Of a DNA stretch of 64,000 nucleotides, positions 1 through 41,931 are shown in pieces (the stretch's first letter is position 1; each line of letters starts with the position of its first letter). The notes under the pieces are model-generated. The model did no database searches, was not told where the DNA came from, and saw only the letters and a list, made by a program, of their open reading frames with translations. Made by a program: the position numbers and the translations under genes. Source of the stretch: Geosiphon pyriformis uo1 (Eukaryota; Fungi; Glomeromycota); contig JAAOMT010000681.1 in assembly GCA_016748015.1 (NCBI GenBank), forward strand, positions 71,605-135,604, written 5' to 3'.

Positions 1-39
1 CAAAAGTTTTCCCAATTTCTTTCTCAACATGGTGGCCAG
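1..39 (-). repeat. Fragment of a host Gypsy LTR split by insertion of E1 (continues at 9912-10550)
   Basis: Joining 1-39 to 9916 onward gives continuous sequence resembling the E4 and E6 LTRs (compare 61611-61650). Confidence 0.75.
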
Positions 40-1021
40 TGTTACCGGAGGTTTTTGGTCTTTTTTCTTAAATGTTGGTAATGTTGATTTGCTGTGAATT
101 CACGTTTTCAGGAAGTAGTTGAACCTTCAATAACTGAATTTATCTTCAAATTATCTCCTATAATTTGAACTGCTGGGCTTATAAGTGGAATGGCCAATTT
201 CTTGCCAGTTACTTTATGTAGTTACATTGTAGTAAACATCAACTCTTTCCCAGGAATTGCTCGTCTGGAAGCTCACTAAAAATGTGTAGTTACTTTGCTG
301 TAAAAGTCAACTCTTCTACAGGAATCTTGTCTGTAGGCTACCCTAATGATTATAGTAAGAAAAATAAAAGAAAATAAAAGAAATGTAAAAGAAATAGAAT
401 TTTTGTTAAGAAAAACATTTTCTATCCAGACCTGAAGTTACTAACAGTTTACTGAAATTGGTAGCTAATCAATTTCAAAATGTTTAGTTGGGTTTTGGGA
501 ATTTTTCAAGTACAATAATTAAAGAATTTGGTTTTTTTGAATTATTTGATATTTTTTTTTTTTTGTGTATATAGGAACGGTTTTAAGAGATAAATCTAAA
601 GTAAGATATATTTTCTCGAAGAGAGAAACTCTTCTTTTATACAACTTGTCATAACACTATTCTATGAACTTAAACTTTGCTATTTTCTACAATTTTGCTG
701 AACTAAAGATACATTTCGGCAAACTACAAGTTATTTTTGCAAACTATTAGATATTTCAGTAAACTATCAATTATTTTGGCAAATTTCTATAAATTTTGGC
801 AAACTTTTGAATGTTACATAGTTCAGGGTATTGCATAATTGATCATCGCAATTAGGTTACATTTGTTTTGTGTACAATTTGGGTTATTAATTAAATGATA
901 ATTTCGGACATTTTTGCTAATGTAATAAGTGATAATTTGAAATGATAATATATGCTAATTAATGATAGAAATTATAAGATAATTTCATGCTAAATAATAT
1001 CTCTAATTTTGTCTGGTAACA
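40..1021 (-). repeat. 3' LTR of E1
   Basis: TGTTACC...GGTAACA termini; near-identical to 8931-9911; purine tract GAGAAGAAGA on the minus strand just inside at ~1022-1037. Confidence 0.95.
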
Positions 1022-1709
1022 TAATCTTCTTCTCAAGACTGAGCTCCGTCGAAGTCCAAGTACTGTTTGTTATTTCCAGATAATAATCCAAAATTATTAA
1101 AGAAATTTGGTCTGAAAATTGTTGAAATTTCAGTTCTGTGAGCTTTCTAATGTATTGAATCTTCAAAGGTTGAAAAATTGGGTTTTGTAGTACATTTTCA
1201 CAGGTGTGAAATAGGTCATAAAGTCTAAGAGCAGCTCTGAGCCTGTAGTAACTGTTTGTTGATCCAGCTGTTGTCTTGAATTCGTTGTGGAATTGTTTCT
1301 GAATAGCTTTTTTTGCGAGGTTTGCTGTTGTAAGTTCCAGTTTCTGTTCGTAGAGTGTTTTTCCAATGTGAAAATATCTATAGATTGGAGGATATTCAGT
1401 GTTTTTTTCATTGAGACACAGTTGAAGTTTTTGTTGAATTGTAGCATTTGGTGGAATACTAATCAGAATGAGCATTAGATTTTCTCTTAAAGCAAGTTTT
1501 AAAAGTTCTGGCAGGTGAATTCCAGTATAACTTCTTGTGTTCTTCTTATACGGGTAATATTTTCATGAATTTGGGGCTAAATTTGTAACTACTTCTATTT
1601 GGGTATAATTAATGTGGTTTCCAGTAACAGTAATAGATAATTCGGGTATTGTTTTTAAAGCTAACATTAGTTTTTGGGATAATTGTTGAATGTTTTGAGG
1701 AATAGTCAT
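990..1709 (-). pseudogene. E1 ORF3, ~239-aa accessory protein of unknown function, one internal TGA
   Basis: ATG at 1709 is in frame with the 990-1475 ORF (MTIPQNIQQLSQKLMLAL...YRYFHIG...AALRLYDLF). It runs through the PPT and ends inside the 3' LTR. Homologs lie in E3, E4 and E5. Confidence 0.8.
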
Positions 1710-1830
1710 TATAAGTGATTTGAAATAAAAAAAAATTATTTTTGGTGCATGGGTTTTTATGTTATTTTTGTTTTGTTTTTGTGAGATTGTTTCTAAATTA
1801 TAAGAAGATAACTATAATAATAAATTTAAA

Positions 1831-3216
1831 TTAAGTGTTCAAGTTGTGAGGCTGTTCAATGACAACTATTGATTCTAAATTTCGGGGAATGTCTTCAGGA
1901 TTGATTAAAGGGGAATGTATACCAATTTGTGGAATTAATGGTTCAAGATTGTTTCTGGAATTATAGTGTTTCAAACAATCTCCATGTGCAATTTTTGCTA
2001 GAATTTTGTCATCAAGTCTTAGCTTGTATGATCTATTGCCTAAAACTTCATGAATAAAGAATGGTTCATCCCATTTATTTTCAAATTTTCCACTTCATTG
2101 TTTTTCAGCCTTAGTTCTGTGTAAGAGAACTTTATTTCCAACTTTAAATTCATTGGTAATAAATGGTAATTTATTGTCATGTCTTTCTTTTTGTTGAGCT
2201 TGGGAATGTTCAATATGAGCTGTTGCTATTCTTTTTTTTCCTTCCAGTGTACTAAGAAGAGTGTAGGCTCTTCTTTGGAGTGTCTCTTGAAAGTTTTTTT
2301 CATTGATTGGTTGCACTGGGTATGTTTCCACTGTAAAATTAATTGGTAATATTGCTGTCTTTCCATAAGTAAGATCAAATAGTGTGTGTTTTATAGTATC
2401 TTGTTTTAGTGTTCTGTATGCTAGTAACACTGATGAAATAAAGATATCCCATTCCTGTTCAAAGTCTGTTGAGACTTTGGCTAAAGATTCACACAATGTT
2501 CTGTTAAAACGTTCTACAAGTCCATTTGTTTGAGGGAGATAAGGTGATGATAGAAGTCTTTTGACATTGAACCGTTTACAAATTTCTTGTATCAAGTTGT
2601 TCACAAAATGTGTTCCTTGATCAGATAAGAGTTCAAATAGGCATCCATGTCTACAGATAATGTCTTTATAGATAAATTTTACTACTGATTTTGCATCTGC
2701 TCTTTGGATGGCTCCGGCTTCAGGCCATTTGGTAAGATAGTCTACGACTACTGCAATGTAGTGGTTTTCTTGGTTTGTAATAGGTAATGGTCTGACTAAA
2801 TCAATACCAACTCTGTCAAAAGGCTGTCCAACTTTGATTGGGTTTAAAGGTTCTGTAGGGCGAGTTCCTCCTCTTTTTTGACAACTATCACAAGATTCGA
2901 CATATTCGTAAATGTTTTTTCTCATTCAAGGCCAAAAGTAGTATTCTAGTGTTCTTTGGGTGGTGCTGTCTTTTCCAAAGTGGGCTGATGAAGGATTTGA
3001 GTGCATGTTGTATAATATAGTCTCTTTTTCCTGTTCTTGTATTAATCTAAGTGGTTTGTCTGGGTTTTTGAAATTTCAGTAATAAATAATGTTGTTGTGT
3101 AAAAAATATTGTTTGGCTTGTTGTTGTAGTTGATGTTTTTCATCTGGAAACCAATCTGTTGGGATTGTTAATGTTTCCAAATATTGTTTGAGATTATTGT
3201 AGTTTTCCGAATTCAT
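1831..3216 (-). pseudogene. E1 integrase, separate ORF
   Basis: Own ATG (MNSENYNNLKQYL); HHCC finger (MHSNPSSAHFG...CDSCQ); DDE core (GIDL, SDQGTHF, NGLVERFN); GPF-type C-terminal module; no chromodomain; a few premature stops. Confidence 0.9.
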
Positions 3217-3272
3217 TGTTTGTTGGCTCTTTTGGTTGGTTAAGTTGAGTGTTGGTTTTTGTGTTTTTTTTT

Positions 3273-6200
3273 CTAATCTTATCTCATTCTGGAGAGACAG
3301 TCAACATTGGTGTGGAGTTTTCCTGGTTTGTGATGTACTATGTATCAATAGTTTGCTAGAAATCCTGTCTATCGGGTTTTTTTTGCATTCAGCTGAGTAT
3401 TTTTGTTCTGAAGTCATTTGAGTCCAATATTATCAGTGATAATATCGAATTCTTTAGGCCTGAGATAAAGGTTGAAGTGGTGTAGGGCCCAAATTATGGC
3501 TGCTGTTTCTAGTTCTGTGGCAGGGTAGTTTTTCTCAGCTGGTTTTAATGTTCTGCTAGCATAGGCAATTACTCGCTTATTTTTATTGTCATTTAGTTGT
3601 GATAAAATGGCACCAAAGACAGTATATGAAGCATCTGTAGCTAGTCGAAATCGGTTGCTGAAATCCGGGTAGGCGAAGATTGGAGCTGTTGTCAGTTTTT
3701 CCTTGAGAATTTCAAAAGCTTTTTGGTGTTCAGTAGTCCATTTGTATTCAACGTTTTTGGTGGTGAGCTGGTTGATGAGTTTTGCAATTTCCGAGAATCC
3801 TTTGATAAACTTCCGATAGTAGGATGCTAATTCTATGAATCCTCTTAGTTCTGTAGTATTTTGTGGAACTTTGAAATTCTTAACAGCACTGATTTTTCCA
3901 GAATTTGGTTTGACTCCTTCTTCACTAACTATGTGACCAAGAAAGGCCAGACTTGTTTTTCCAAAATGGCATTTCTCAATGTTTAGTTTTAATCCTGCCC
4001 TACGTAATCGTTGAAAAACTTCTCACAGGTGAATTAAATGGAGTTCAAAAGATGGGGAATAAACATCAGTGTTATCAAGATAAACAACTATTGATTTCCA
4101 AAGGAGTCCAGCATATACAATATCCATGAGTCTTTAGAATGTTGCTGGCACATTGCATAATTTAAAGGGCATTACATTGAATTCATAGTTTCCTTCTTGT
4201 GTTGTGAATGCTGTTTTGGAGTTGTCCTTGGAATCCATAGCAACTTGCCAGTATTCATTTTCTAGGTCTAATGTTGAAAGGTATTTAGATTTTCCAAGGG
4301 CATCTAACATGTCATCAATTCGCGAAAAAGGGTAAGCATCCCCAATGATGACACTATTGAGTTGTTGATAATCAACACAAAATTGTATTTTTCTATTTTT
4401 CTTTTTAATTAGGACCATAGGTGAGGCCCATGGATTCATTGATGGTTGGATAAGCCCATTGTTAAGCATTTGTTGTACTTCTTCTTGGATAAATTGGTGA
4501 CTTTCTGAAGCAACTCGGTAGACTTGTTGTCATCTTGGTTTAGCATCTTCTGTATAGATTTGGTGTTGCACCAAATCGGTTCTTCCTAAGTCATTGTTGT
4601 TTTCGGCAAAAATATCAGCAAAATCTGCAATTAGTTTCTTGAGCTGGTTTTGTTGTTGTGGTTCAAGTTGTCCTATGTTGATTCGAGACAGTTTTTCCAT
4701 AACAACATAGTAGTTTTCAGAGCTGAAGTTTGGGTTGATTTTTGGTAGTGAATGTCCAATGATTTCAGAGAAATCAGAAACTGTTTGGGGTAATTCTTGT
4801 TGAAATATATTACTGTGAATAATTCCAATTTCTAAATTATTTAATAAAATTATGGGGTAATTATTGGGGTTGTAAAAAGTAACTTGGACTTTCTTTGTTC
4901 CTTCTGGAATATAAATGTTTGGGATCAAAATATTATGTTTCAAGCAGACTTGTTCATTGGATTCAAAAATTTGTTGTGTGGTTGTTGGCTTTGGGCAGAT
5001 GTAGATTTCCAGATGTTCTTCAAAGAGTGAGATGGTAATTGGTTGTGGAAGTCTAAGAATCTGGTGGGATTCTTTCTGTTTGTTGAGAGCTATGTTTACT
5101 GGAACTGTGAAACATCCAGTTGAACCAAAACCTTGTGTTCCTCTTTCACTTTTTCCCAACTGTTCTCTTTGATTAACTAATTGTAAACTCGAAATGTTGA
5201 TTAAGGGTAAATAGATAGCTTGAACAATTTTTTCAGCATATTCAATTTTGAAAGGTTTATCAGTTTCATTTTGTAACATGACTGTAATGTTTCCTGTGTA
5301 TCCAGCATCAATGATTCTTCCTCTAACATTGATTTTTTTGCTTGCCAAGGATGATCGAGAAGCAATTTGAACTATTGCTCCTGGTGGGATTTCGAGGGCA
5401 ATTTTGAGATTGATTTTTGTGAGCAATTTGGGTTTGAGAATAAGAGTATTTTTTCCTGGATATTTTAGATCATATCAGCATCAATCTCGTGAGCTTTTTC
5501 TGGTTTTATTCCTTTGTCCATTGTTGTTGAAGTATTTAAGTTGTAATGCAGGCTAATTTTTGATGAGATAGATGGGTGTTGTCTCAATTTCTTTTGTCAC
5601 TTCAAGTTCTCTGAATTTAATTTCATATTCATCATTTTCACTGGGCAAGGGAATGCTAAGAGCATAGCATTCAGGACACCACTGTTCATCACAAGGCATA
5701 ATGCATTCTTCACATAGCCTAATGTTCATTTGCTCTAATTGTTGAATTTGAGCTTCTTGGGTTGGGTAGATGTGACTTGCGATTTGGTAGTAGACTTCTA
5801 CTTCGTCTTTGTAATTGAATCCAGCTAATTCCATAGTGTATTCAATGTATTCTGCTTCCTTCATTTGACAAACATCTTCTTTGGTAGCTCCATTAATTAA
5901 TGTCATTGCTAAGTCGAAAATCATTTCGGCATTATGGGGGTAGTGATAAAGTTTGTTGAGAGTACTGTTGTATGCTGCATAAAAGAGAGTTCCCCTTTTT
6001 ACTTTTTCTGAAATTGATAAAGCATATTGACAGGTCTGATTGCAGACTTCTGCTCTCATGGCTACATCAATCTAATTGCATTCTTCTGGTAGCATATCTC
6101 TACAAGTCAAACAAGGGGTGTTGTCCTATTTTCCACTCCTTTTTATTAGATGGCCCCATCATTCTCTGTGGCAAGCCTTGCAGTAATAACAAGTATGATT

Positions 6201-8885
6201 TTCATATTTTTCTTCAGGTGAAATGCAGGCTCTCATTGATGATAGTTTCTTGTGGCAGTCCTTACATTTAAGAGGAATATAGGGACATTGTTTCTTTGGT
6301 TCGGGTTTTGAGTAAGGGATATTCCATCTAGAGGTTTCGGGTTCAGAATATAGGGTAAAATGTTCTTGTTCTGTTTCATCGGCCCAGTTAGATGTTGATC
6401 CAAGAGCCATAAATGTTTCAAAGAGGGGTTTTTCCTCCTCTAGTTCGAATTCAAAAGCCGGGGCTTTTTCAGAATGTTTGTTAAATATACCACAAGTAGC
6501 AGGTACCCGGGTGTGTTGTCCTTGGTAAGAGATTGTTAACTCTTGTGTCTCCCAATTCAGATTAGCATTGGCTTTTTAAAGCCAATCATTTCTAACAAGA
6601 GCTTGGTACTGGGGTGCGTCTATTACAAGAACTTTGACTGGAATAGTGATTCCATCAAGGGTGAATGGAAAATTGTCAATTTCTTCTACTGAAGTTTTTT
6701 TCATGCCATCAGCAGTGACAATTACTGTTTGAGCTGGTCAGTCGACATTTCTCTTCAACTGTTGCATTAACTGGTAGGTGATAATGCTTCCAGCAGATCC
6801 ACTGTCTAAGATCAAGCAAATTGTTTTTCCTTCGACTTCTGCTTTGGTGTACATAGCCATGATTGCTTTTTGTTCATTGGCAGCTACATTGCTAAGCAGG
6901 AATGGTGACTTATTTGCTTCAAACTCAAAAGAGAATATATCTGAAAGGTTAGCATTTTCAGCAATTCTGGCTGGTGAGATTGTGGTGGGAGTATAGGAAA
7001 GGTTTTGTTGTTGTGCTGCAGCTCTACCTTCCGAGGGTACAGTATGGTGAAAATCTTGTTCTTCTGACATTGTTAGATAACTGGGTTGAGTGTGATAATG
7101 GTTGGATTTTGGTTGAGTAGAATTTCGGGGAACCAATTGGTTGCTTGAACTGATTCTATTGTTGTTTACTTGGTATCGGTTTTGTGGTGTAAATTGACTT
7201 TGTATACTCAGTCTTTGAGTAGGTACTTGATAATGTTGTGTGGGTGGTTGTTGGTATTGCTGTTGGATTGTCTGTGGGGTGGGCTGATAATAGTTATTTT
7301 GGTATTGAGGTCTTGGTAGATAGTAAGCTAGTGGTGGTAGTGGTTGATAATAAGATTGCTGTGGTAGAAGGTAACATTAATTACTTCTATTTTGTTGGTC
7401 TCGTTGTAGCTTTCTGCAATCTCTTTTTCAGTGGCCAGAGTTTCTACAGTAATGGCAATTCTGAGGCTGGTTATTAGAAAGTGGTGCAAAGTTGTTTTGA
7501 TTTCGTCTTTGTGGTGGTTAATATCTTTGGGGTTGCTGTTGTTGTTGGTTAGTGAAATAGTTTTCAACTTTTTTTGTGAGTTGGTCAATTTTTTCCTCAG
7601 CTGCTGAGCTGTTTTCTCCAATTGCCAAATTTACAAGTTTTGTGCAATTGGTCTTTTCTATGGCCATTTCATATCTTTTCGCATACTGTATGGCAGAGTT
7701 TAAATCTTCTGGCGCATGTGGCTAAATCTTTTTAATTAGTTTATCTTTTAGACCAGTGATAAATTGATCCAAGATTTGAGCATTGGAATAATAATTGTTT
7801 GTTTCGAGTTGGCAAATTTGTCTGAGAAGTTTGTTGAATTTCCCAATATAAGTCATAACAGATTCGGAGGGTTCTTGTTTGATATTTCAAAAACAATTGC
7901 GAAGAGTAATAGAGATATTATTGTCAGTGAACTGTTCAAGGAAGGCTGCTTTGAAAGCATTCTAATTATTGAATGGGGCAGCCAAGTTTTTAAACCATTC
8001 TTCTGCTGTTTCTTTGAGAAAGTAGGGAATTGTTCTTAACATTCTGGCAGCATTCCATCCATTTGCATCTCCAGCTTTAGTAACTTGGTCGAGCCATTCT
8101 TGGAGACTGGTCTCAATGTCTTCTCCATTAAATTCAGGGATTTTTGTGATGTATGTTGTCATTTCATCTTCTTCATTTTCACTGTCTATTGATTCTTCTT
8201 CGGATATTTCAGGTTCATTTTCTTCATTCACTGCTGTCTCAGAGTGTTCACTTTGATTTTCAGCTAGAAAGTCAAGGAGATTGGAACTAGTTTGAAGGGG
8301 TTCTTGTTGTCTGGTGAGACTTCTAAGTGATGTAAAATCTTCTGGTCTTGCAAATCGATTCAAGGGTGAATTAGGTGTTTGTGCTTGTGCAAGTAAAGCT
8401 GGAAAAGATGTGATAGTAAGTGGAAGTTTTGAACTGGTTCCTTGTGCAGGTGTTTGTAAATGTTTGAATGATATTTTGGGAGTATTGGGTGTTGTGTGAA
8501 TAGGTCGGTTATCTTTTTGTCTTTTGTTGCTACTGGTTTCAGGTTCAGATTCGAGTTCAAAAGCAAATTGTGCATTTGCAGGATATTTTTCTTCACAGAA
8601 TCAAATGATATTATAATCAAGTTCCTCAAAATAAGTAGTGCAAGCTTCAGCACTAATGTTTTTTGATTCAGTGTTGGAATAGTGTAGTATGTTCTCAAGA
8701 AGATCTTTTTTAACTGTTGTAATGTTATAGTTTCCAAAGAGGTAGTCGTTGATTCAATTTTTGATGTATTGAAAAAGTGTTTTCTTAAAAGCTATGATTC
8801 TGTCGTGTATTTTAAATCATTGTTTGCAGTCTGTATAAATCCATTGATAGTATTCTAAAGTTGTGATGTCTGAGGTGGTCACCAC
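3273..8885 (-). pseudogene. E1 ORF1: gag (CCHC) - aspartic protease - Cys-rich domain - dUTPase - RT - RNase H
   Basis: All ORF-track fragments from 4134 to 8363 that carry these domains share one frame. Motifs: CHYCRNSGHxKRDC knuckle (~7415-7457), ILDSGSAGS protease, RT NPWASP / FCVDY / YLDN(D), RH ATDAS...V(A)DCLSR. Many CGA/CAA/TGG-derived stops. Confidence 0.9.
5115..5500 (-). other. dUTPase domain inside E1 pol
   Basis: All five trimeric dUTPase motifs: DA(G)YDL, ASRSSLA, GRIIDAGYTGNI, KIVQAI, SERGTQGFGSTG. Confidence 0.92.
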
Positions 8886-8910
8886 TTTGAATTTGTTGTT
8901 GCTGTGTTAT

Positions 8911-8928
8911 TTCTGTGGGAGAGCACCA
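8911..8928 (-). promoter_or_regulatory. Primer binding site of E1
   Basis: TGGTGCTCTCCCACAGAA begins 2 nt after the 5' LTR, complementary to a tRNA ending GAGCACCA. Related PBSs start at 46468 (-), 24037 (+) and 35345 (-). tRNA identity not assigned. Confidence 0.85.
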
Positions 8929-8930
8929 AA

Positions 8931-9911
8931 TGTTACCAGAGGTTTTTGGTCTCTTTTTTTAAATGTTGATAATGTTGATTTGCTGTGAATTCACGTTTTC
9001 AAGAAGTAGTTGAACCTCCAATAACTGAATTTATCTTCAAATTATCTCCTATAATTTGAACTGCTGGGCTTATAAGTGGAATGACCAATTCCTTGTCAGT
9101 TACTTTATGTAGTTACGTTATAGTAAACGTCAACTCTTTCCCAGGAATTGCTCATCTGGAAGCTCACTAAAAATGTGTAGTTACTTTGCTGTAAAAGTCA
9201 ACTCTTCTACAGGAATCTTGTCTGTAGGCTACTCTAATGATTATAGTAAGAAAAATAAAAGAAAATAAAAGAAATGTAAAAGAAATAGAATTTTTGTCAA
9301 GAGAAACGTTTTCTATCCAGGCCTGGAGTCACTAACAGTTTACTGAAATTGGTAGCTAATCAATTTCGAAATGTTAGTTGGGTTTTGGGAATTTTTCAAG
9401 TACAATAATTAAAGAATTTGGTTTTTTTGAATTATTTGATATTTTTTTTTTTTTGTGTATATAGGAACGGTTTTAAGAGATAAATCTAAAGTAAGATATA
9501 TTTTCTCGAAGAGAAAAACTCTTCTTTTATACAACTTGTCATAACACTATTCTATGAACTTGAACTTTGCTATTTTCTACAATTTTGCTAAACTAAAGAT
9601 ACATTTTGGTGAACTACAAATTATTTCTGCGAACTATTAAATATTTCAGTGAACTATCAATTATTTCAGCAAATTTCTATAAATTTTGGCGAACTTTTGA
9701 ATGTTACATAGTTCAGGGTATTGCATAATTAATCATTGCAATTAGGTTATATTTGTTTTGTGTACAATTTGGGTTATTAATTAAATGATAATTTCAGACA
9801 TTTTTGCTAATATAATAAGTGATAATTTGAAATGATAATATATGCTAATTAATGATAGAAATTATAAGATAATTTTATGCTAAATAATATCTCTAATTTC
9901 ATCTGATAACA
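8931..9911 (-). repeat. 5' LTR of E1
   Basis: Direct repeat of 40-1021, adjacent to the PBS. Confidence 0.95.
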
Positions 9912-10550
9912 TCGGATTTAGTCTGGCAGTCATGCCTTTCTAGTAAGCTATCTGATAATATATAAAATCCTACCCTTATTTCTAGGTCTTTTACCAGGCT
10001 ATCCTTGACATCAATAACTCAGTGCTTAATCTTTTAATCAATTAGTATATAACAACAAAATCCAAGAAAGAAAGAAAATAAAATAAAGAAAATAAAAATA
10101 AAGAAAAATAGAGACAATAAGCCAAGACAATTTGGTATGTTAGTATCCTGTCAATAGCTGTGATTAAGAGCTATTGTTCTAATATGGTTAAGTATTAATT
10201 ACTATCGAAGTGTTGATAGTGAAGAGTAGATTGAGATATAGAATAATTATTTATTTGATGATTGGGAACTGGAAAGTTGCTTAAATTAAATCTAAACTGA
10301 GAGGTCTGTCTTTTTAGCTTCTAATCTTGCTGCTATATATACATAATTGAGATTCCTCAATTCCTTGATTTTTCACAACAGGAATCCTGGAATTCCTGAA
10401 ATCCTGTGATTTCTTGTTGGGGAATCCTGCAATTTCTGAAAAGAATCCTGGAATTCCACATTTTACTATGTCTACCTCTGATTGGCTAATATCTACTGAC
10501 TAATAATACTATATTTCCTATATTCTATGAATAAAAATGAATCCACTACA
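9912..10550 (-). repeat. Remainder of the host Gypsy LTR interrupted by E1
   Basis: Shares the TATA, AATAAA and CAATAGCT..AGCTATTG core with the E4/E5/E6 LTRs; starts with TGTAG on the minus strand at 10550; GGAATCC-type U3 repeats at 10350-10460. Confidence 0.75.
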
Positions 10551-18249: not shown

Positions 18250-19444
18250 AAATATTGTTATTAATATAAATTAAAAGAAAATATTATTAAACCTATAAGT
18301 TAAAAACTATGTTTAATATTATAGAAACAGCTAGAGAAAATGTTTTAAAAATTTTTTCCTTACTTAATAATCATGAAAAACTGTTTTTAATAACTACTAA
18401 AATATTTTTTTCATTTTTGGCTGGTTTTTTACCAATTAAAGTTTCTTTAAAGAGACATATTTAGATTAATTTTAGTGTTGTTTCCACCTAATTTAAGAGT
18501 CCAAAAGTTTTTAATAACAGATTAGTTAACAAGCTAGTTTTTTTTTATAGTTTTTATATCTAGTACTGTTAGTAGCACCTCTTTAAAAAATATAATTAAA
18601 AAGACCAAAAATTCAAAAAAATAAAGCAGTTATTTGTTTCTGCTATTGTTACACCAAATTTCTTTGTGATATTAATAAGATTTTAGATAAAATATTTGTT
18701 GTATTATCTAACACATTATCTAAGATGGGCCAAAATTAACTACTGGTTGTGTTGTCAAATATGATATTCTTTAGCAAATTATTGCTGATTTTAAAAGCAA
18801 AACAATAGTCTTTATTGGATTATTTTTTTTTAAAAACTGGGCTAATCAGATAAAAACTAATTTAATTTTTTTCTTGATTTCTGGTGCTGTCATTAGTGAT
18901 GTTTAAAAAACTATTATTAGTTATTAAAAATTTGCTAAGTGAGTGGTTTTTATTTTAGTGTCTAATACAACTTTCAAAATCAAATTGGTTTATATTAAAA
19001 CTGTTTTTCAATCTGTGCATGGTTTTTTAAGTACAAAATCTTTTTCTAAAGACAATATTAAGCTTTTTTGTATAAAGTTTGTTTTTTAAAATTCTTTGAA
19101 TGCTATGTTTCTGGTTGAGCTTACAAATTTTGTTTGTTTGGTTATTTTTAAATTTGCAAAGTTTTTGGTAGTTTCAAAAACTGGTTTTTTTTTTGCTGTT
19201 ATTGTACTATATGATATGTTTTTGAGTATATCTGCTGCTAATATTAAGATAACTTTTAATATATTTGGTAAAATTGCTTATGTTATACTGAAGTCTAGTA
19301 GTATTTAACAATATAGGATTGTTTATTTTGTTAAACTGGACTCTGCTGTATCTGCTTTAAATTATTGGTCAGCTTTAATGAATAAAAATAGTGTTAAAAT
19401 TTTTTTTTAATAAATCAAAATAAGATTATTTTATTTTATAATAG
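18250..19444 (+). mobile_element. ORF1-only LINE derivative (HAL1-like), 5' part, interrupted by E3
   Basis: Decayed ORF1-like coding sequence that resumes at 47131. The 5' boundary is uncertain. Confidence 0.6.
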
Positions 19445-20160
19445 TGTTATAAATTGAAGTAACAAACTAATAAATAGCAAAAAAACACAAGATTGTAAAA
19501 TAATAAAAAAAATCAAAGAGAATTCAACTTCAAAAAGTGAATTAAATGAGTATGAATTTAATATATAAAATCAGTCTCATAAAATATCTTAGTTATTATA
19601 CTTTTTAAAAGATAACTGAAAAATTTGAAGATAAAAGGATAGTTTATACTGTTAACAAATGATTACACACTGGTATAATTCTATGTCTTACATTGGTACT
19701 TTTAGAATTCAATATCAGATATCAGATGTGTTTTTCAGTCATATTTTATTTAATAATCTTCAAATGCTACAATTACATATTTTAAGAAAAAAGTAGAGAA
19801 TAACCAACAAGTAATCTTTTATCTTAAGATGTTCAAATACTTGAAGGTAAGGAAAGAGAAATTAGTGATAAGAGAAAAATTGAGATGAAAGTTATTATTT
19901 TATTTATTTGATTTCTTCAATTTCTGATATGTATTTCTATAGCTAAGAGATTCATTGCTTATATAGCTATCAAAAAGAGTCAATGATCAGGTTAACAACT
20001 AGGTTAATAATCAGATCAATAATTAGATTAATGATCAGATCAACAATAGGGTCATTAATCAGGTCAATGATTACTATCTAAAAATAAAGTAACTAATTAT
20101 ATGACATCAGTGGTTAATACATGTAATAACTAATAAAAAATATGGGTTTTAATCATAATA
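19445..20160 (-). repeat. 3' LTR of E3
   Basis: Direct repeat of 46475-47130; 12-bp tandem array at ~19980-20074. Confidence 0.9.
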
Positions 20161-20579
20161 TCATCCTCTTAAAAAAAATTAAGCTCTGGCAAAATCAAGA
20201 TATTTATAAAATAATCTATTTAAAGAGTTTTGTTTAATTCAAAGCTAACTAGTTTATTGAAGTCTTTGGTAGATAAGATATATAATATTTAAGGTGAAAT
20301 GAGTTTTGTATCTAAGAAACCAAATTTTTGTATTAAAGTTTTGGTTCTTTTAGCAATAGTTAAAACTTTTGAGATATCTAATTATATAATGCCCAAAATT
20401 TTTGCCTGTATCTTTAAAATTGTTTTTTTGGGTCTAATAATAATATGTGTTCTATTGTTATCAGTTATAGTGATTTGTTTTTTAATAATCAGAGTAGCAT
20501 TTGGATAGTTTTTGATTTAATACTTATGAAAAATATAGAAAATGTTTTAAATGTTTTGATCCAAGAAATAATTATTCAT
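20161..20579 (-). pseudogene. E3 ORF3 (shorter, divergent homolog)
   Basis: ATG at 20579; reads ...IAKRTKTLIQKFGFLDTKLISP*ILYILSTKDFNKL...LPELNFF, resembling the ORF3 C-terminal motif. Confidence 0.55.
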
Positions 20580-20689
20580 GTTAATTGAAAATATTTCTGT
20601 TTTAGAAATAATATATTTATTTATACTTGATTTTTGCTGATTATTTAAGTCAGTATTACTACAACAGACAACCAATCAGATCATTTATG

Positions 20690-23188
20690 ATATTTTTTGA
20701 GTCATGTACCATAAACAAGACGATTATTAAAGATTGTTTCAGATTAATCTTGAAAAATATAAGAACTATTGATTAAAACTTTGTTAATTATAAAGAGTTT
20801 TTTCTACTGGCTAAAGAATTTATTATCATAGATATTGTTTCTGTCTGAACAGTATTCCAATATTAAGTTACCAATACTTAATGAAAGTGTTTTTAAGTTT
20901 TTTTTTTCTTAAGCTTTTTTTGAAACTGTTTTATCTTTTCAAAGGTAATTATTTGTGTTTCTATCAATGAGTCAAGAATGGTATCAAGTCTTCTTTGCAA
21001 AATGTTTTTATAATTCCCTATTGTAATTTCTTTAAAAAATATTGTTTCAATGTCAATTTCTATTGGTAGTATTGCCATGCATTCATAGAACAGATAAAAA
21101 GATTCATAATTTGTTATGTCATAATTTACAGTTTTATAAGCAAACAAAGCTAAAGACAGTACTTTGTTCTATAAGTTTGTTTTTTTACTGGTTTTAGCTA
21201 AGGTTTTACATAGTGTTCTATTGAAATATTCTACTAAACTATTTGTTTGCAAGTGGTAAGAGAAGAAAAGTTTATGATGTATTTCCATTTTTTTACAAAG
21301 TTTTTCAACCAGTGTACTAAGAAAAACTCTTCTTCTATCAAATAAAAGTTTTTTGAAACAGTCATAATAGCAAATAATATCTTTATAAATAAAGTTGGCT
21401 ATTAAAACTGCTGTTTGATCTGGAGTGGTTCTTGTTTCTACTCACTTTGTAAGATAGTCAGTAGCTGTAATAATGTATCTATTGCCGTTAAGAGTTATTA
21501 TTAAGAGTCCAACAACATCTATACCAATTTTGTCAAATAGTTAGTCAATAGAGATTGGATGAATATCTTTCTTCTGGTTGGATTTTCTTTTTTTTTGGCA
21601 GATGTTACAGGTTTTAATGAACTCAACAATGTTTTTTCTTAAGATAGACTAATAATAGTAAGCTAAAGTTTTCTGAATTGTATTTGTTTTTCTAAAGTGT
21701 CTAGCTAATGAATCAGTATACATGTTATAGATCACAATTTTTTTTCTTCAAATCTAATGACTTTTTAGGAATAATCAAGATCTTTTCTATTTCTTTTGTA
21801 AAGTTAGTTTTAATAAATTAAATAGAAATTTAATTGTTTGTACAAATGTTCTCTTTGCTGTTGAGTGTATTCTGGTAGATATTGTTTTTTACCCAAAAAT
21901 TCTATTAAAGCAGAGTAGTTGTCCAAGTTTATTATTATGTTTGTTTATGAGAGTATTACTAATAATTAAGTTAGTTTGGTTAAGAGACTGTACTATTACT
22001 GAATGATAAGTCTAGAAAAAGTGTTGAAATTTTGATAATTTGCTCCTTTGTAGTATTGAATATTATAGTCAAATTCATTTACATAAAGTATCTAGCAAGT
22101 TATTTGTTTGTGTTCTAGCTTCTTTTTATTGTGCAGTCAAATCAAGACTTAATAATCTGTTACTACTAAGAATTTTATATTAAAAAGATATTGGTCTCAG
22201 TAACTAGTAGCCCAAACTACTGTCAAGCATTCTTGTTCAGTAACTGAATAGTTTTTTTCTGTTGGTGTAAGAGTTTTACTGATATATACTATAGTATGTT
22301 TCCTATTATCTTCAATTTTTTGTAATAAAACAGCACCAAGTCTATAACCAGATGCATTAATGTGCAGAATAAAAAGTTGGTTTAGGTCAGGTTGTTTAAA
22401 GATTGGTTTAATAATAAGTTTTTCCTTCAAAGTTTCAAAAGCTTTTTGTTGATGAGTGCTCCAGTGATAATTGTCATTTTTTTTGAATAGCTAATTAAGA
22501 AGAAAAGCAATTTTGGAAAAATTCTTGATAAATTTGTAATAGTAAGAAGCAAATTAAGAAAAAAACATAGTTTAAGAACATTTATTGGTTGTCTAATGTT
22601 CTGAACTTTTCAACTTTAGCTGAATTAGAGAAGATTTCATCTTTTGTAATAAGATAACCAAAGAACTAAGTGGATTGTTGTTCAAAAAAAAATTTGATTG
22701 AATTTATTTTAAGGCCAGGATTTTTAAAGAGATCAAAAACCTTTTACAAGTGTTCAAAGTGTTCATCTCAGATTTTTGAGTATACTATTATATCATCCAG
22801 ATAGACCAGAACAAAGTTTTTTTTTACTGATTCAAACACTTTGTTTATTAGGTGTTAAAAAGTAGAAGAAGCATTGATGAAACTAAAAGACATAATTGTG
22901 GATTTATAGATGTCATACTTGATAATAAAAACAGTTTTCTTTCTATTTTCTAGATCTATCTCTACTTGCCAGAATTTAGCAGTTAAATCAATAGTTAAAA
23001 AGAAAGCAGCATCATTGAATTTGTCTAGCATTGTATTAATTTTGAAGAGTAGGTATATATCTCTTATAGTAATGACATTTAATTAGCAGTAGTTGACACA
23101 GAAGTGTAAAGTTCCATCTTTTTTGGATACAACTAAAAAAGCCTATTTATTTTTGGTTTTTTGTATGAATTCAAGATTTTTCATTTGG
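20690..23188 (-). pseudogene. E3 RT - RNase H (stop at 21998) and separate integrase (from ~21932)
   Basis: ORF fragments 22197-22430 (LHINASGYRLGAVL) and 20893-21147; GIDVVG and NSLVEYFN integrase motifs. Confidence 0.85.
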
Positions 23189-24034
23189 TGTTACTCATAA
23201 AAAAAACAGATATAGAAAATAGTAAACCAATAAAGAAGTAGTAGTTAGCATATAAGCACATTGCTCAGCAATATGGAGTGATATTAAAAAATTAAGGCAC
23301 ATTGCTTAGCAATATGAGCATTGTTCAAAAAATCATAGCACACTGCTTGAGAATGTAAGCAATCTTATAGAACATAAATTAAGTATATATAACAATAGCA
23401 TTAGAAGCAGAAAAGACAGACCTCTTAGTTTAGATTTGATCTAAGCAATCTTTTACATTACAAAATATCAATAAATAATTATTCAATATTTCAAATTCAC
23501 TATCCACTATCAACACTTTTTGTTAATAGTAATTGATACTTAACCACATTGGAACAATAGCTCTTGATCACAGCTATTAATATAATATTAACATTTATTG
23601 TCTTGGCTTATTCTTTATTTTCTTTTATTTTCTTTTTTTTGTTTTGTTATTTCTCATTGTGTATTAAATTGGTTAAAAAATTAAAGCTCTGAGTTACTGA
23701 CATCAGAATATAGCACTGGTAAAAGACCCAGGAATAAGAGTAAACACTCAGATTTGAAAATAGCTTACCAAGAGATTGTTGGCCACTATGCCAAGAAAAA
23801 AATTGACAGAATTGTGATTCCGGGAAGTGACAGACAACAACTACTTAACCCACAGGTTGATATTAGAAACACCATTTAAAGAAAATCATATTGGAATTTC
23901 TGTTTATTATACAAAAGACTCAACAAAAACCTTCAGATATAGTTAATTTTTAGAAACCAACATTATTATATTAATTGAACACCAAGTTACAGGTTTTTTA
24001 TTTGCTTTAAGACCCCAAATAATCACCTGTAATA
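23189..24034 (+). repeat. 5' LTR of E4
   Basis: TGTTAC...TGTAATA termini; direct repeat of 42581-43400. Confidence 0.9.
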
Positions 24035-26026
24035 TTTGATGCTTCCTGTAAAGTATAATTCTACAGAGAACTGGCACTAACAACAATTATCCAAAAGTGG
24101 CAAAATCAGAAATAATAAAAACAAACCATCTAAAATTCACTAAATTTTTATTTTAGCAGTACAGCCAACAATTGGGCTTAACCAACAACCATTATCCAGC
24201 AGAATCAGCATTCAACTTTTATGTTAACAAAAGAATCACAGATTTTCTGAGAAGACCAATTGACATTAAGTCAGCAAAAAAAAATTTTTATACAGAATTA
24301 ATTTAATATACTAGCTTATCACAAAATTACAGTTTCGCACCAATCATCAGAAAAATCAATCAAAAAATTGAAAGATACACTCAACAACAATTCCCTATTA
24401 TCTATGCAAATAAAAGTAAAGGAAAGTTACAAACACCAGCAGCAACTCCAAAAAAAATACAATTACCAACATAGAAAAAACAAAGAATCAAATCTCCTCT
24501 ATATCCATCATACTATCACATATCTGGAAGTACTATTAATATCATATCAGCAGTCATGTTCACATCAAATGCAACATCAACATTTGGATGACTCCCATTT
24601 CAAAGTAAACAAAAGAAAGCAGAGTTATTGAGAACATATGGTGATTACTTTGAAAGATTCAAATCACAATCCTCAACACCATCAGGATTCCAATTACTGC
24701 CACTTCTACCAGATTTTAGAATTGCAAGTCTTTGGAAAATAATGGCATCACAAGAAAAAAAAGAAGAGTATTAAGAATTTAATTATCAAAATCTGATTGC
24801 AGAAAATCTGGAAGTGAAAACTCTAAATATTAAAACCCAGCAAACTCAAAAAAATCCAAATCTTAAGTTAATTAATTAGCAAAACTTACCTCCAGTAATT
24901 ATTATTAATCAACAACCAATTGATTCAATTGCTGAACAACTTCAACAGCCACCAATACTACCTCAGCAATTACTACTTCAACCATCACAACAACCAAACT
25001 TGGATTCAATAGCCTACACCCCAATAGCAAAACTTGAAAAATTCACCAGCAAAGAAGATGATGCCCAAGTGTGACTAAACAATATGGAGAAAGCCATTGT
25101 AGCCAACAGATAGAATAATACATGAGCCATGCAAATCATTCCATACTTCTTTCAGAATACTGCCAACTTATTGTATCAGAGCTTGGTCAACAAACCTTAG
25201 AATTTCAATACATTTAAACTTGAGTTTTTGAGATATTTTAGCAACAACAACAGTATTAATCACTTAGCCAATACCTTCACCACTATTAAGTAAGGAGAAA
25301 CTAAAGCAGTCACTACTTACTTAGAATGCTTCCATAATAACTTGTGCCAAATACAAGCAATTGATGCAAATTATTTTACAGCACCACAGATTTTGAACCA
25401 GTTCATCTGTGGACTGTGCAATAGTATTCTCCAATGCATACACCCAATGCATCCACAAACTTTTCAAGATACAGTTACCAATACATGAGATTTTGAATTT
25501 GCAGAACTTGAAGCTAATCACACTTAAGCCATCAATTTAGTGATGAATGAATCATCTGAATTAAATTTCAAATCAAAACAACTCAGTAATTCAATTAATC
25601 AGAAATTAAAAGGATACTTAGCTGACAATTGTGCAATTTATCAGCCACCTCAATGATACAATAATTCCGGAAACATAAATTACTCCCAAAATTAGTTGCA
25701 TCTCTTATCATTATCCAATCAGCTATGGCAGCAAGAAATGTGTATCTGTCATAATTGTGGTAAACAAGGCCATTTGAAAATTGACTGCTATTTTTATAAT
25801 AATAATTTATAATCAGAAAATCAATATAGAAATTCCAATCACAGGTTTCAAACTCTGAATCAATACTCAAATCAGGATCAATACTTATCTTATTACATTC
25901 AAATGATGTAACAACCAATTTATCAACCACCAGTATATTAAGTACCAATCTATTAGCTAACAACATTTGTTATTTATCAGCCACAGTTGCAAGTAATATA
26001 CTAGTCTCAACAAATTCAAACACTGC

Positions 26027-26943
26027 TGTTACAAGTGATTATTTGGGATTTTAAAGCAAATAATAAACCCATAACTTGGTGCTCAATTGATGATATTAGT
26101 AATGTCTGAAGATGTTTTGATCTAAAGGTTTTGATTAAAGTTTTTTGTATAATAGACAGAGATTCCTATGTTATTTTATTTGTAGCTTCTCAGAATTACA
26201 ATTCCATCAATTTTTTTTTCAGCATAATGGCTGGCAATTTTCTGATAAGCAATCCATAATTCTTATGCATTTTATTTACTTACAGAGATTTTTTACTAGG
26301 CAATTTTTGATGTTAATACTTAGCACTTAATTTTCAATCAATTAATATATACAACAAAATAAAGCAAAAATAAAGAGATAAAAAAAAATAAAGACAATAA
26401 GCCAAGACAATATAAGTTAGTATTCTATCAATAGCTGTGATCAAAGGCTATTGTTCCCACATGTTTTAAGTATCAATTACTATCAACATTTTAGAATTGA
26501 TAACAAACAATTGGATTTGAAATGCTGAATAAGTATATTTATTAATATTTTGGAATAATATGGTTTCTAACTAAGAAACAGTAACTAATGAATTTCTGTT
26601 TGGCGATTTGTCTTTTCTGCTTTTAATGATACTGCTATATATATGTATTTTCTAGTTTTACAAGGTTACTTTAGATCATCTGTTCTTGCTAATTATCACT
26701 TTATTTTCTTATATTATAACTAATTATCCTATATTATAATATGTTATCTAATATTATTACACATTATTCTGTGTTATTCTGCATTATAACATGTTATCCC
26801 ATATTATAACATATTATCCTATGTTATAACACATTATCCAACATTATTGTGTGCTATTCTGTGTCTTTTTACATTTTATCACGTTTTTTTTCAGATCACA
26901 TTTTTCCTTCTTTCTTTGATAGGCTTTCTTTTTTCAAGTAATA
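26027..26943 (-). repeat. 3' LTR of E5
   Basis: Direct repeat of 35348-36265; 10-bp periodic array at 26711-26860. Confidence 0.92.
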
Positions 26944-26959
26944 TTATTTCTTCCTTTTT

Positions 26960-27729
26960 TAATATTGAGTTTTTATAAAGTCAGTTATGTTTGTTAATAG
27001 AACTTTGTTTATGTAATGTTTGATGGTTATGTTGACTATGGCTTTTTGTAGATCTTTGAACTGTTGATTGGTCATTTGTTTTATGTTGTTGACTGTTATT
27101 TTTTTCAAAGATCCATCCAATAGTATGTTTGAACAATGTCAGAAAGTAACATATAATTGATATACTGCCTTGTAGTATAGTGTTAGGTTGCTCCTTCCTA
27201 CAAATTTTTCTACTTATCATATTGTTTCTTTGTTAAAAATTTTCTGGTTGTAGTTTCCATATGGGTTTTTTAAGTCTAATTGTTCTTTGATTTTGTAAAA
27301 TCAATATGTTAGAAGGAGTTTTTTTTTCCACTTCTAGACATTGTCTGGTGTCTACTCTTTTGTTTCAGGGAGTTTGGTCACATGAGCTAAAGATTCTTTA
27401 ATTTTTTCTAGTTTCAAGACCAAGTATGTTGTATATAATTGTTTTTGTCTTCTATCTAATTTTTTCACTCTTTCTTCTTCCTCTCCTCTTTTTTCTCCAC
27501 ATTTCACCTAAGAAGTATATTTAATTTCTTTTTGTAAAATTTCTTTCTTGGGCAGAATATAGAAATGAGAATAGTTAGTTCTAGTTGAACTCTTACCCAT
27601 CCTTTTCTTTCTCTTATCTCTATATCTTATCTCTTTTTTATCAATTATAATTTTTATTTGAGATGTAGATTTTTGAATTTTGTTAAATAATTGTTTAGAT
27701 AATTTTAAAATTTTGTTTGAAAAGTCCAT
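26960..27729 (-). pseudogene. E5 ORF3
   Basis: MDFSNKILKLSKQLFNKIQKSTSQIKIIIDKKEIRY...GRSNLTLYYKAVYQLYVTF*HCSNIL aligns by eye with E1 and E4 ORF3. Confidence 0.75.
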
Positions 27730-27809
27730 GTTTGAAATTTCTATCATTCTTTTTTTTGTGGTTTTGAGACTTATATGCACATAATATCTAGATTTTGGCA
27801 TGTATATAG

Positions 27810-29173
27810 CTATGTCTTAATGATTATAATTGGTTCCATATTTTATGATATATCTTCTGGTCTGATTAATAAAATTTGTGCTTTTAGTTGTGATTCCACT
27901 GATGTTGATCCTTGTGTTTGATAAATTTTTAAATGATTTCCATGTGCTGTTCTTTTCAGAATTCTGTTTTCTAATCATAACTTGTAAGATCTGTTTCCTA
28001 AAATTTTGTGTATGTAAAATGATCCATCCTATTTTGGATCAAACTTTCTATTCCATTGTTTTTCTGCTTTGGTATGATGTAACAATACTTTGTTTTCAAT
28101 TCTGAATTCGACTGGTTTATCTGATAGTTAGTTATTGTGCTTTTTTTTTTGTTTTTCTTGTGATTTTTTGAATGTTATTAACTGCTCTTTGCCATTTGTT
28201 TTTTAGTGTTTCCATTAAGTCATATGTTTTTCTTAGCAATGTTTTTTGAAAATTGTCTTCTGTTATTGGTTTTGTTGGATATGTATTAACTTCTATTTCA
28301 ACTGGTAATGTTGTTTTTTTACTGTATACTAATTTAAATAGTGTTGCTTGTGTAGTATCTTGTTTTATCATTCGATAAGCAAATAATACTAATGGTATGA
28401 ATAAATTCTATTTGTTCTGGTTTTCTTGGCTGATTTTGGCTATTGCTTTACACAATGTTTTATTAAATCTTTCAACTAATCTATTGTTTTGTAAATAATA
28501 TGATGATGATAATGGTCTCTTCATTCTAAATCTTTGATTCAGTTCTGTTAATATTCTATTTACAAAGTGAGTTTTTTGGTCGAATAATAATTCTTTTGGA
28601 CATTTGTGTTAACAAATCAGATCTTGATGAATGAATTTGGCAACAGATTCTGCATCTGCTCTTTGAATTGCTTTTGTTTCTCCATTTAGTAAGTTAATTT
28701 ATGGCTACTGTGGTGTATCTGTTTTTTTTGCTAGTTATTATTAATGATTTAACTAAGTCAATTCCAATACACTCAAATGGTTGTCTTACTTTAATTGGTC
28801 TTAATGGCTCATTGGGTCTTATTCCTCCTCTTCTCTGACAAGCATCACAATTTTGCATGTATTAGATAATGTTTGGATACATAGATGGCCAATAATATTT
28901 ATTTCTAGTTTTTTTCATGATTGCTTCTTTGTAAAAATGTCCTGCTGTTAGATTAGAGTACATGTTGAATAATATTGTTTTTTTTTTTGGTTCTGTAATT
29001 ACTCTGGTTGGTTGATCTAGATTTTTTTTGTTTTTCCAATAAAGTATATTTTGGTAAGTGATAAAATATTTGAATTGTTGTTTGATATGGTTTTGTTTCT
29101 TTTGAAATAATTTCTCCTTGAATCATTAAGTATTTATAAAATGTTGAAGTTGTTAATATTTTTGTGTATTCAT
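27810..29173 (-). pseudogene. E5 integrase, separate ORF
   Basis: ATG at 29173 (MNTQKY); HHCC and DDE motifs; ends EPIIIIKT*. Confidence 0.85.
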
Positions 29174-29203
29174 TTTTTGTTATATTTTTGGGTTGAAGTG
29201 TTC

Positions 29204-32200
29204 TTAAATTTGTCTTATTAGTGATAAACCATCAGCATTTCTATTTTTTTTTCTTTTTTTGTAGTGTATAATATATTTAAATGATAAAAGTTCTATTTTC
29301 TATTAAGTGTGACAATCATCTCCAAATTTTTGCTTCTGGATTGAAATCAATTCTTTATGATCAGTGTATATGTTGAACTTCTGGCTTAAGTATTCTTTTT
29401 ATTTCATAACTGCTTAATAGATTGCTAAATGTTCTAATGCTGGTGTTCTATTGTTTTTTTTAGCTGAACTCAAACTTCAACTGGCATATACTACTGGATG
29501 TTTTCTTCTATCCAGTCTTTTCTGTGATAGTACTGCTCCCAATGCTTGGCCTGATACATTAGTGGAGATGATGAATAGTTTGTTGTGATCTAAATACATC
29601 AACACTAGAGCTTAAAAAAGCTTTCTTCTTAATATATCAAAAGCTTTTTACTGGTTTTCTGTCTATGCATACTTGATGTTTTTTAATTAGAGCTGGTGTA
29701 ATGGCTGGGCCAGTTTAAAAAAGTCTTTGATAAAGCAGCAATAGTATTTAGCAAATTCCAAGAATGCTCTTAGTTCTGTCAAATTGGTTTGTACTAAAAA
29801 GTTTTTGACTATCTCAATCTTGTTTAGATCTGTTTTGATACCATTTTTGCTCACAACATGTTCCAAAAACTTGAGATCAGTTTTTCCAAAAAAACACTTG
29901 GTTGCATTTAATTTTAATCTGATTCTTTTTAGTCTTTTAAACATTTGTTCGAAATGATGTAAATAATTGTTGAATATCTTGAAGAACACATTTGTGTTAT
30001 CTAAGTAAACAACTACTAATTTCTATAGTAGTCTGATGTAAACAATTTTTATTAGTCATTGGAAGATGGCTGGTGCATTTATCAAACCAAATAGCATTAC
30101 TTCAAATTTGAAATTCCCTTTTTGTATTGTAAAAGCTGTTTTCTTTTTATCTTTCAGTTTCATGGCTACTTGCCAGTAATCATTGTTTAAGTCCAAAGTT
30201 GGGAACCATTTCTTTTCTTCAAAAGCATCAAACAGTTCTTGAATCTTTGGAGTTGGGTAGCTATCTCTTTTTGTTACTCCATTCAGTTTCTTGTAATCTA
30301 TACAAAAGTGGATTTTCCCATTTTTCTTACAAACTAATACGACTGATGATGACCATGGGCTTATTGATAGCTGAATAAGCCTGTTGTCAAACATCTGATT
30401 GATTTTTTGATAAATGATTTCATGGTTGGCTAGTGGTACTCTGTATGCTTGTTGTTTTATTGGCATCATATCTTCAGTCTTGATCTAATGCTAGATGATG
30501 TCAGTATAGCCAAATTCATTTTTGCTGGCAAAAATATTATTAAAGTTGTTGAGTAACATCTTGAGCTACATATGTTGAAGTGAGTTTAAGTTTCTCATGT
30601 TCATTTGTTCTAATTGTTTTGGTTAAAACAGATAATATTCATTTCGTCTATAAATTGTTTATGATGTGATATTCACATATCTGCAAAGCTGTAGAAAATT
30701 TAAAATAGAATTTGGTGGCTGTTTTTTAACTTCAGTGCTTAAATATCTGATGGTGGTTCCTTTTGGTATTTTTATGATGTTTCCTGTTGCATTGTAGATA
30801 AAAATTTTGATATGATTCTTGTTTTTGGCTGGTATGTAGAGATTGGTAAGTCCAATTTCTCCTGATTTGCAAATGGTTCAAAAATTTGTGCCTGATTCTT
30901 CACTTTTCTTTCTATAGTTAACATGTACTAGTTATATGGCAGAATGAAAATTGATTGACAGGTGGATATAATTTTTCCCTTGTTAATAACTTTTTCTTCT
31001 ACCATATTGACTGATACATTTATTTTACCTGTTGATCCAAATCTCTGTATCTCTCTAGCTGTAATTTTTAATTCTTTCCTGTTTTTTACTGATATTAATT
31101 AAGCTACTTTAACCAGAAACAGGAATATTGCCTGTGCTATTTTTTCATTTAGCTCTATGATATAGATCTTTTCTGAGTCATTTTGTAATATAACAATGAT
31201 ATTTTTTACATATCTGGTATCAATTATTTCTTTTCTGATGCTGATTCTTTTTTTTGCTAAGCTACTTCTAGATGTTAATTGAATCATTGTTGTTGCAGGG
31301 ATTTCCAGTACTACTTTAAGATTAATACAGATGTGTGAATGTGGTTCTAATTTTATGGCATCTTTTTCTGGATATCTTAGATCAAACTCTGCATTGGTAT
31401 CATGTATGCATTCTGGCATAATACTTTCATTGTTGTTACTGAACCATCTAAGTTCCTGCTTTTTGGAGAGATTAGGAAGCATGATATACTGTTTGGAGTC
31501 TAAATTTGAGTTTAAATTGTTGTTGTTATTGCTGTTGTCATTTTGAACAGAGTTGGAACTATTGTTGTCATTGTCGTCAAGATTTGAATTGGGATTGAAA
31601 GTTGAATTCAATTTTGATGCACAGCTGCTGATTGGTTGTTCCTCTTCTGGAATTGTGTAGATTCTGCGTGATGGTAGATTGTAGATAAGATCATACTTAT
31701 TACAATACTGAAAGTCATATAGGATTAAACAATGGTTACATAATTGAGTTTTTATTTCTTCCAAGTGCTGTTCTTGTTTTTTTTGAGTGGGTGCTAAATT
31801 TTAATAGTGTTCATAAAATTTTTCTGGGCCTGTCTCAATATCTAAAAAGGCATCAGAATTGGGAATAAGAACAACTTCAACTGATTCAGAGGGATTGTTC
31901 TTTATTTCTAAAATCTTACTGGACAAAGCACCTTCTATCTTGGTATTGGTTATTCTCCAAATCTCACTTTTGTTGTGTGGGTAATTGTTTAGATAAGAGA
32001 TTGCTCAATACCAGGCTGCAGTTATTGGAATTTCTCAACTTATCCAGTTGTTAATAAGAATTGTGTATTGACATGATGTGTTGCAGATTTTTTTTGACCA
32101 GGAATGTTGTTCCACATCTTTTTGTTGAGCAGTTGTTCACCACAAGTGAAACATGATTCATTGTTCTCTTGCCTTGGCGTTTTGGGTAGCCATAGCGTTC

Positions 32201-35284: not shown

Positions 35285-35347
35285 TTTTGGATGGTTGTGT
35301 ATTAGTACTGGTTCTCTGTAAAATTATATTTCACAAAGAGCACTAAA

Positions 35348-41876: not shown

Positions 41877-41931
41877 ACAACCAAAAGAGTATATAAAGAC
41901 ACAATATATGCGACAAAAGCAACAAAGAAAA

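Follow-up and report, generated by a model that had tools for sequence, protein, structure and literature searches.

Candidate CG-centred integration targets of Ty3/Gypsy retrotransposons in Geosiphon pyriformis and their likeness to those of Ginger1

Probable CG-centred duplications at the element ends

We analysed a 64,000-nucleotide stretch of the glomeromycete Geosiphon pyriformis uo1 (contig JAAOMT010000681.1, positions 71,605 to 135,604; hereafter the window), which carries nested long terminal repeat (LTR) retrotransposons of the Ty3/Gypsy class, and compared the 4-bp target duplications at their ends. The flanks are a real observation, and the CG core that they point to is probably real as well. 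We consider it likely that such Glomeromycota-type Ty3/Gypsy elements make their duplications from CG-centred targets (CCGG, or CCGN/NCGG) and that this sequence is read by the integrase itself, as in Ginger1.

When the window was aligned with itself, four LTR pairs were recovered, and besides them a solo LTR and a partial element. The full-length element E1 (40..9911, minus strand; LTRs at 40-1021 and 8931-9911, 95.5% identical) is flanked on the plus strand by CCAG (36..39), for which the homologous empty sites suggest the ancestor CCGG, and by TCGG (9912..9915), in which the CG is retained; alignments showed that it was inserted into a host LTR of the E4/E5/E6 type (9916..10348, the other part at 1-35). 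E4 (23189..43400, plus strand; LTRs 87.3% identical) is a dUTPase-bearing Gypsy element placed between TTGG (23185..23188), inside the reverse transcriptase (RT) gene of E3, and TCAG (43401..43404), both read on the plus strand, with TCGG as the probable ancestor. It is split by the dUTPase-bearing element E5 (26027..36265, minus strand; LTRs 86.1% identical), which stands between CTGC (26023..26026), inside E4, and CCAC (36266..36269), again on the plus strand, with CCGC as the probable ancestor. A solo LTR of the E1 family (50608-51580, minus strand; 50604..51584 with flanks) lies in a 51-bp tandem repeat and is abutted by CTGT on both sides. Another dUTPase-bearing element, E6 (minus strand; element from 61421, 61417..64000 with its flank), is present with its 3′ end only and runs off the window, so that it offers the single flank CTGG (61417-61420). 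The counter-example is E3 (19445-47130, minus strand; 19441..47134 with flanks; LTRs 84.5% identical), a related Gypsy element without dUTPase, which is abutted by ATAG and ATAA.

When the element ends were re-derived, all these flanks were exactly as an earlier note on this DNA had given them, and its description of E3 as a separate, dUTPase-free family with misfitting flanks was borne out. A further flank that it had listed, CCAC at 10551-54, was excluded from the counts because no homology-supported LTR end exists there. A flank was taken to fit when its centre was CG, TG or CA and it had C first or G last. This rule fitted 9 of the 11 flanks, that is, five of six independent sites (E1, E4, E5, the solo LTR and E6; not E3), against a background of 4.6% of the 4-mers in the window. 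The CG core that had been proposed for positions 2-3 of the duplications was supported. When the rule was applied 4-30 bases further out as a shifted control, 7/297 fitted. The binomial p for the fit against the window background was ~1e-6, an optimistic value, the motif having been defined on the same sites.

The LTR pairs of the elements themselves provided a second null. Aligned dinucleotides with a CpG signature made up 1.7% in E1, 0.9% in E4 and 1.5% in E5, and the joint chance for the three elements was ~3e-5 once the choice of position and element had been allowed for by a factor of 12, which is likewise optimistic for a post hoc motif. The reciprocal TG/CA pattern seen in the flanks of E4 and E5 was found at 5/813 and 11/912 dinucleotides of their own LTR pairs, respectively. 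The two copies of the duplication differ at two of four bases in E1, E4 and E5. A 5-bp duplication was considered for E1 and rejected, as GCCAG and TCGGA do not match; reading the E3 flanks as a decayed ACGG was also rejected, since five changes would be required.

Read in the direction of their elements, the window sites are CCGG, TCGG, GCGG, ACGG and CCGG, of which only three are non-palindromic (chance 0.25). The polar motif NCGG that had been put forward in the earlier note was thus not sustained; a related soil element (L031, below) reads CCGT in element orientation, and pooled flanks at the left end of E1 have the opposite polarity. The motif is stated safely as a CG core with C before it or G after it.

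Evidence for the ancestral targets from outside the flanks

The differences within LTR pairs were almost only transitions (44 transitions and no transversions in E1; 121 and 6 in E5), which makes decay by C>T and G>A the right model for reading the flanks. In the E1 target, the homologous empty site was CTGG and CCAG in the two E5 LTRs, a reciprocal pair which points to CCGG; the right E4 LTR has CCAG there, and an X2-run contig has CCGA. At the E4 target, the duplication is spanned by an RT codon of E3 that is TGA at one end of E4 and CAA at its other end, the two products expected when CGA decays by a single change. In relatives this position is Lys (11/29) or Arg (7/29) and in no case Gln (0/29); it is Gln in E1 and E5 and a stop in E4, which is again that decay pair.

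The E5 site encodes Leu or Pro in a Pro/Gln-rich stretch of gag and is compatible with CCG. For the solo LTR the ancestor is ambiguous, the sister units of the 51-bp repeat reading CTAT, CCAT and CTGT and both copies being CTGT. An ancestral CG is backed from outside the flanks at two sites, E1 by its empty sites and E4 by the broken codon. As to methylation, all that follows from the CpG decay is that the sites probably carried it at some point once the elements were in place.

Most transitions in the LTR pairs of E1, E3, E4 and E5, where transversions are few, fall outside a visible CpG context (83/97 in E4, 94/98 in E3); these repeats are under strong general C>T/G>A pressure.

Flanks of related elements outside the window

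Eighty metagenome loci were kept from 379 relatives, together with four short loci. Comparison of 34 loci with a recognisable 3′ LTR start gave seven end rows; three of them ran into the primer-binding site (collapsed or circular assemblies), one was spurious (L028), and three were usable. In these related soil contigs the 3′ LTR end is followed by non-element DNA starting with CCGT (L031), CCAG (L050) and GTAG (L059), so that two of three fit the rule. The CCGT of L031 is exact, and this word makes up 0.7% of the 4-mers of that locus. Three complete elements (35-37% integrase identity), which lie outside the integrase branch described below, have the duplications AAAG (L088), GATC (L086) and CATA (L087).

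Loci L092, L094 and L095 were dropped as their ends were not resolved, and neither a flanking LTR pair nor an inverted-repeat pair with a duplication was found for L085, L090 and L093. The LTR-end pattern search of the metagenome contigs gave no match, the viral contigs searched held no relatives, and the five genomes behind the loci, when searched, showed no further LTR copies. It was observed that L085-L095 come from contigs of up to 2.7 Mb which are filed in bacterial metagenome-assembled genome records and bear complete eukaryote-type Gypsy elements; these records likely hold host DNA. The LTR ends in the fungal clade often read TGTTACCGG (E1 40-48, L029:8695, L054:1574, L059:3148), and the element end itself therefore carries CCGG.

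Flanks in the Logan contigs were available as pooled consensus rows only (16,861 contigs of run X1 in one alignment and 753 in another), and they gave a weak and mixed signal; X1, possibly the run from which the window itself derives, is no independent sample. Before position 40, eight contigs pooled to TTGG with an agreement of 0.53, which fits the rule but has a polarity opposite to NCGG; a row of 28 contigs at this place was mostly of the internal side. The depth ratio over the left flank of E1 was 0.072 against a random-flank estimate of 0.006 (11x), which was not counted, contig depth not being copy number.

Element structure and phylogeny of the integrase

E1 contains gag, protease, a domain of unknown affiliation, dUTPase, RT, RNase H and integrase, with stops interrupting the open reading frames (ORFs), and it has Pfam matches to dUTPase, RVT_1, RT_RNaseH and rve as well as a PBS-like TGGTG (primer-binding site) and a polypurine tract. 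The LTR ends of all elements read TGTTA/TATTA...TAACA/TAATA, and the direct LTRs of the dUTPase-bearing elements measure ~850-980 bp. In E1, E4, E5 and E6 the dUTPase sits between protease and RT. Direct LTRs with TG...CA ends, primer-binding site, polypurine tract and the order protease - RT - RNase H - integrase are those of Ty3/Gypsy elements, and the 4-bp duplication, exact in the solo LTR and decayed in E1, E4 and E5, lies within their range of 4-6 bp. The unaffiliated domain (5553-6575, minus strand), between protease and dUTPase, falls outside every Pfam family; it has homologues near 31666-32103, 37597-37977 and 62545-62925 and is thus common to E1, E4, E5 and E6, with 26-31% identity.

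The E1 integrase (1831..3216, minus strand), delimited by translation, Pfam and tree, has a YPYY-like N-terminal motif, an H2C2 zinc finger, the DDE core and a decayed GPY/F motif; the motifs were read from the translation and the alignment, and YPYY was assigned by eye in comparison with P0229. Neither the C-terminal piece of E1 nor two intact relatives showed a chromo, PHD or methyl-binding domain, and the chromodomain PF00385 did not occur among the 120 matches listed for the integrase. The integrase thus lacks the C-terminal chromodomain of chromoviruses, as had been claimed before. Among the matches listed, the best named ones were Geosiphon pyriformis proteins (79-86% over about half of the query), followed by Rhizophagus (47-52%).

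An IQ-TREE phylogeny was built from 41 rows chosen from 112, including 13 other Gypsy integrases which were found with the same queries and do not cover all Gypsy lineages. Ginger1-type proteins were gathered by domain content (integrase with OTU, Ulp1, PHD or UCH and without RT), and Tat-like proteins were recognised by an extra RNase H domain and a plant source; both labels are our own. The fungal clade (89/93), the Tat-like integrases and the Ginger1-type clade (99/98) were joined on a 100/99 branch against the 13 other Gypsy integrases. The nearest neighbours of the fungal clade were P0126 and P0127 from Tanacetum (Tat-like), and the fitting flanks fell in two of its sub-clades, E1/E4 and L031. 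Many relatives (P0001-P0120; compare E1 near 3216) were predicted as separate integrase ORFs of 400-430 residues with their own Met, and in L048 a stop stands between RNase H and integrase; separate expression of the integrase in the fungal clade is possible on these gene models.

Composition of the window and its other features

The window has 28% G+C and a CpG observed/expected ratio of 0.17. At 54001-57500, around a 427-residue ORF with a weak kinase match, this ratio is 0.86, and the stretch is likely an unmethylated genic island, as far as its composition tells. CCG/CGG sites number 6.3 per kb there, 3.75 in the young E1 and 0-1.4 in the old elements.

The four resolved targets (4/4) lie inside other repeats, namely one LTR, two element coding regions and one tandem repeat. 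It is doubtful that a CGG preference drives this nesting, as had been suggested earlier: in a window made up mostly of repeats no special cause is required, and an integrase in search of CG would meet with more CCG/CGG sites in the CpG-rich stretch than in E1 or the old elements. LTR expansions described as striking have been reported for Geosiphonaceae and Ambisporaceae in the available text of PMC11952901.

Two further features were noted. A decayed non-LTR (LINE-like) element occupies 11340-18110 (plus strand) and ends with a poly(A) run near 18088-18113; its label comes from reading of the sequence, the ORF pieces having no Pfam match. At 51849-52214 a 108-bp tandem repeat is present in 3.4 copies, and we take it to resemble Sel1-type coding repeats.

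Discussion

Several points weigh against integrase-read CG-centred targets of Ginger1 type. The window offers no more than six sites, and these are the ones from which the motif was derived. Neither E3 nor L059 (GTAG) fits, despite their place in the same fungal integrase clade. As the copies at the solo LTR are identical, an original CTGT would be no less simple an assumption than CCGT. In E6 and in the left LTR of E4, the empty site homologous to the E1 target is CCAA. Behind 9911, the pooled consensus of 21 contig flanks starts with ATAT and not with C (agreement 0.45), which speaks against a strong preference, except if motif-like flanks, resembling TCGG, aligned further into the reference and dropped out of the row. 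The free tree joins the fungal clade to Tat-like integrases (90/92) and not to Ginger1, and forcing fungal clade and Ginger1 together gave a p-AU of 0.0504. Plant Tat/Athila elements have 5-bp duplications, so ancestry shared with Ginger1 would require a loss in that group.

The position of the fungal clade in the free tree and the misfits of E3 and L059 would agree with a real preference that arose independently in a fungal sub-clade, the match with Ginger1 being convergence on a bendable CpG step; CGCG targets have been described for the ZAM errantiviruses, which are Gypsy elements of an unrelated group, in the accessible text of PMC5408687. We regard such convergence as fairly unlikely, as the motif matches that of Ginger1 down to the CCGT/ACGG variant and the fitting flanks come from two sub-clades. 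Could there be no preference at all, the pattern arising by chance in a small sample, helped by reconstruction of C/G ancestors and by insertion into young, CpG-richer repeats? The low number of sites, the post hoc motif and the pooled flanks behind 9911 would allow this, and the CG frequency of E1 is 2.5x that of the window. It is nevertheless improbable: the LTR-pair null is drawn from equally old element DNA and still gives its low joint chance, few shifted controls fit, the empty sites are independent evidence, and two of three outside flanks fit. Steering of insertions into silenced repeats by an integrase or host tether that recognises methylated CpG is very improbable, for although all four resolved targets lie in repeats and most transposon families of Rhizophagus irregularis have high CG methylation (10.1101/2021.03.30.436303, in the part accessible), the domains expected of such a reader were absent from the sequences searched, the outer C or G, with which a plain CpG reader could dispense, is constrained too, and nesting is the default in a window made mostly of repeats.

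Starting from what was observed, namely the flanks, the element anatomy, the lack of a chromodomain and the place of the integrase among Tat-like and Ginger1-type proteins, we infer the following course for integrase-read targets. The integrase would choose the site and cut it with a 4-base stagger that has a CpG step at its centre, reading sequence or shape directly and tolerating variation at one outer base. Methylation would later reach the element and its edges, and each copy of the duplication would then lose C or G independently, which would give pairs such as TTGG/TCAG. The CCGG-type preference would be shared with Ginger1 by descent.

More tentatively, and with somewhat less than even confidence, we suggest that the Glomeromycota LTR lineage keeps the CCGG specificity of Ginger1 and that this specificity is older than the split of these retrotransposon integrases from the Ginger1 transposases. 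The elements would then consume their own targets: because methylated CpG decays, the supply in old silenced DNA would shrink, and insertions would be pushed to young repeats and unmethylated CpG-rich genic DNA. There is also a practical side, as CpG decay breaks duplications, and tools that require an exact duplication would likely miss most older elements in LTR-rich symbiont genomes.

Comparison with known systems

Sequence-strict integrases are rare among LTR retrotransposons and are known mostly for AT-rich words in insects. Among Drosophila elements, sequence-specific integration was stated to be exclusive to errantiviruses and their derivatives, with the targets TATA, CGCG and ATAT (PMC5408687), and Drosophila Gypsy target motifs were described as palindromic and clade-specific (PMC3276498), both sources being available in part. 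The errantiviruses of the gypsy, ZAM and Idefix groups resemble the window elements in having Gypsy-class integrases with sequence-specific 4-bp targets. The window elements have no env and presumably belong to a different branch.

With the YPYY-motif Gypsy elements (Athila/Tat, Gypsy-1-I_RO, DGLT-A) the window elements share the non-chromovirus Gypsy layout, Tat-like integrases being their nearest neighbours in the tree, but they differ in the dUTPase between protease and RT and in the 4-bp CG-centred duplication. A literature search for a CCGG- or CpG-targeting LTR retrotransposon returned Ginger1 and no fungal case, and Repbase entries, subscription papers and supplements, which lay outside the search, may record such duplications. 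The accessible portions of PMC6839031, PMC5751038, PMC12440569 and PMC12863088 mention no such target for a Gypsy family.

The closest precedent for CG-centred duplications, which the earlier note did not mention, is the animal cut-and-paste DNA transposon Ginger1 (Bao, Kapitonov and Jurka, 2010; PMC2836005). As given in the accessible part of that paper, its 4-bp duplications are CCGG in 75% and CCGT/ACGG in 24%, its ends read TGTNR, and its integrase has YPYY, H2C2, DDE and GPY/F motifs; Ginger1 was placed near Athila/Tat with no Gypsy lineage as a significantly supported sister, and that part gives no CCGG target for any Gypsy element. The window elements share with it the TGTNR ends, the integrase motifs and the 100/99 branch. 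Their 4-bp duplications would resemble its CCGG type, but two of their probable targets, TCGG and CCGC, are looser than its set. Ginger1 is bounded by terminal inverted repeats of 40-270 bp, lacks RT and bears OTU, Ulp1 or PHD tails, whereas the window elements have direct LTRs with inverted ends of only ~6-10 bp and, without such tails, carry gag, protease, dUTPase, RT and RNase H. If the CCGG preference is true, such a fungal Gypsy element would be the living retrotransposon counterpart of Ginger1 and would supply a new character for the question whether Ginger1 descends from a Gypsy integrase. The window elements are probably a Gypsy lineage that is like Ginger1 in its choice of target but is not itself a Ginger1.

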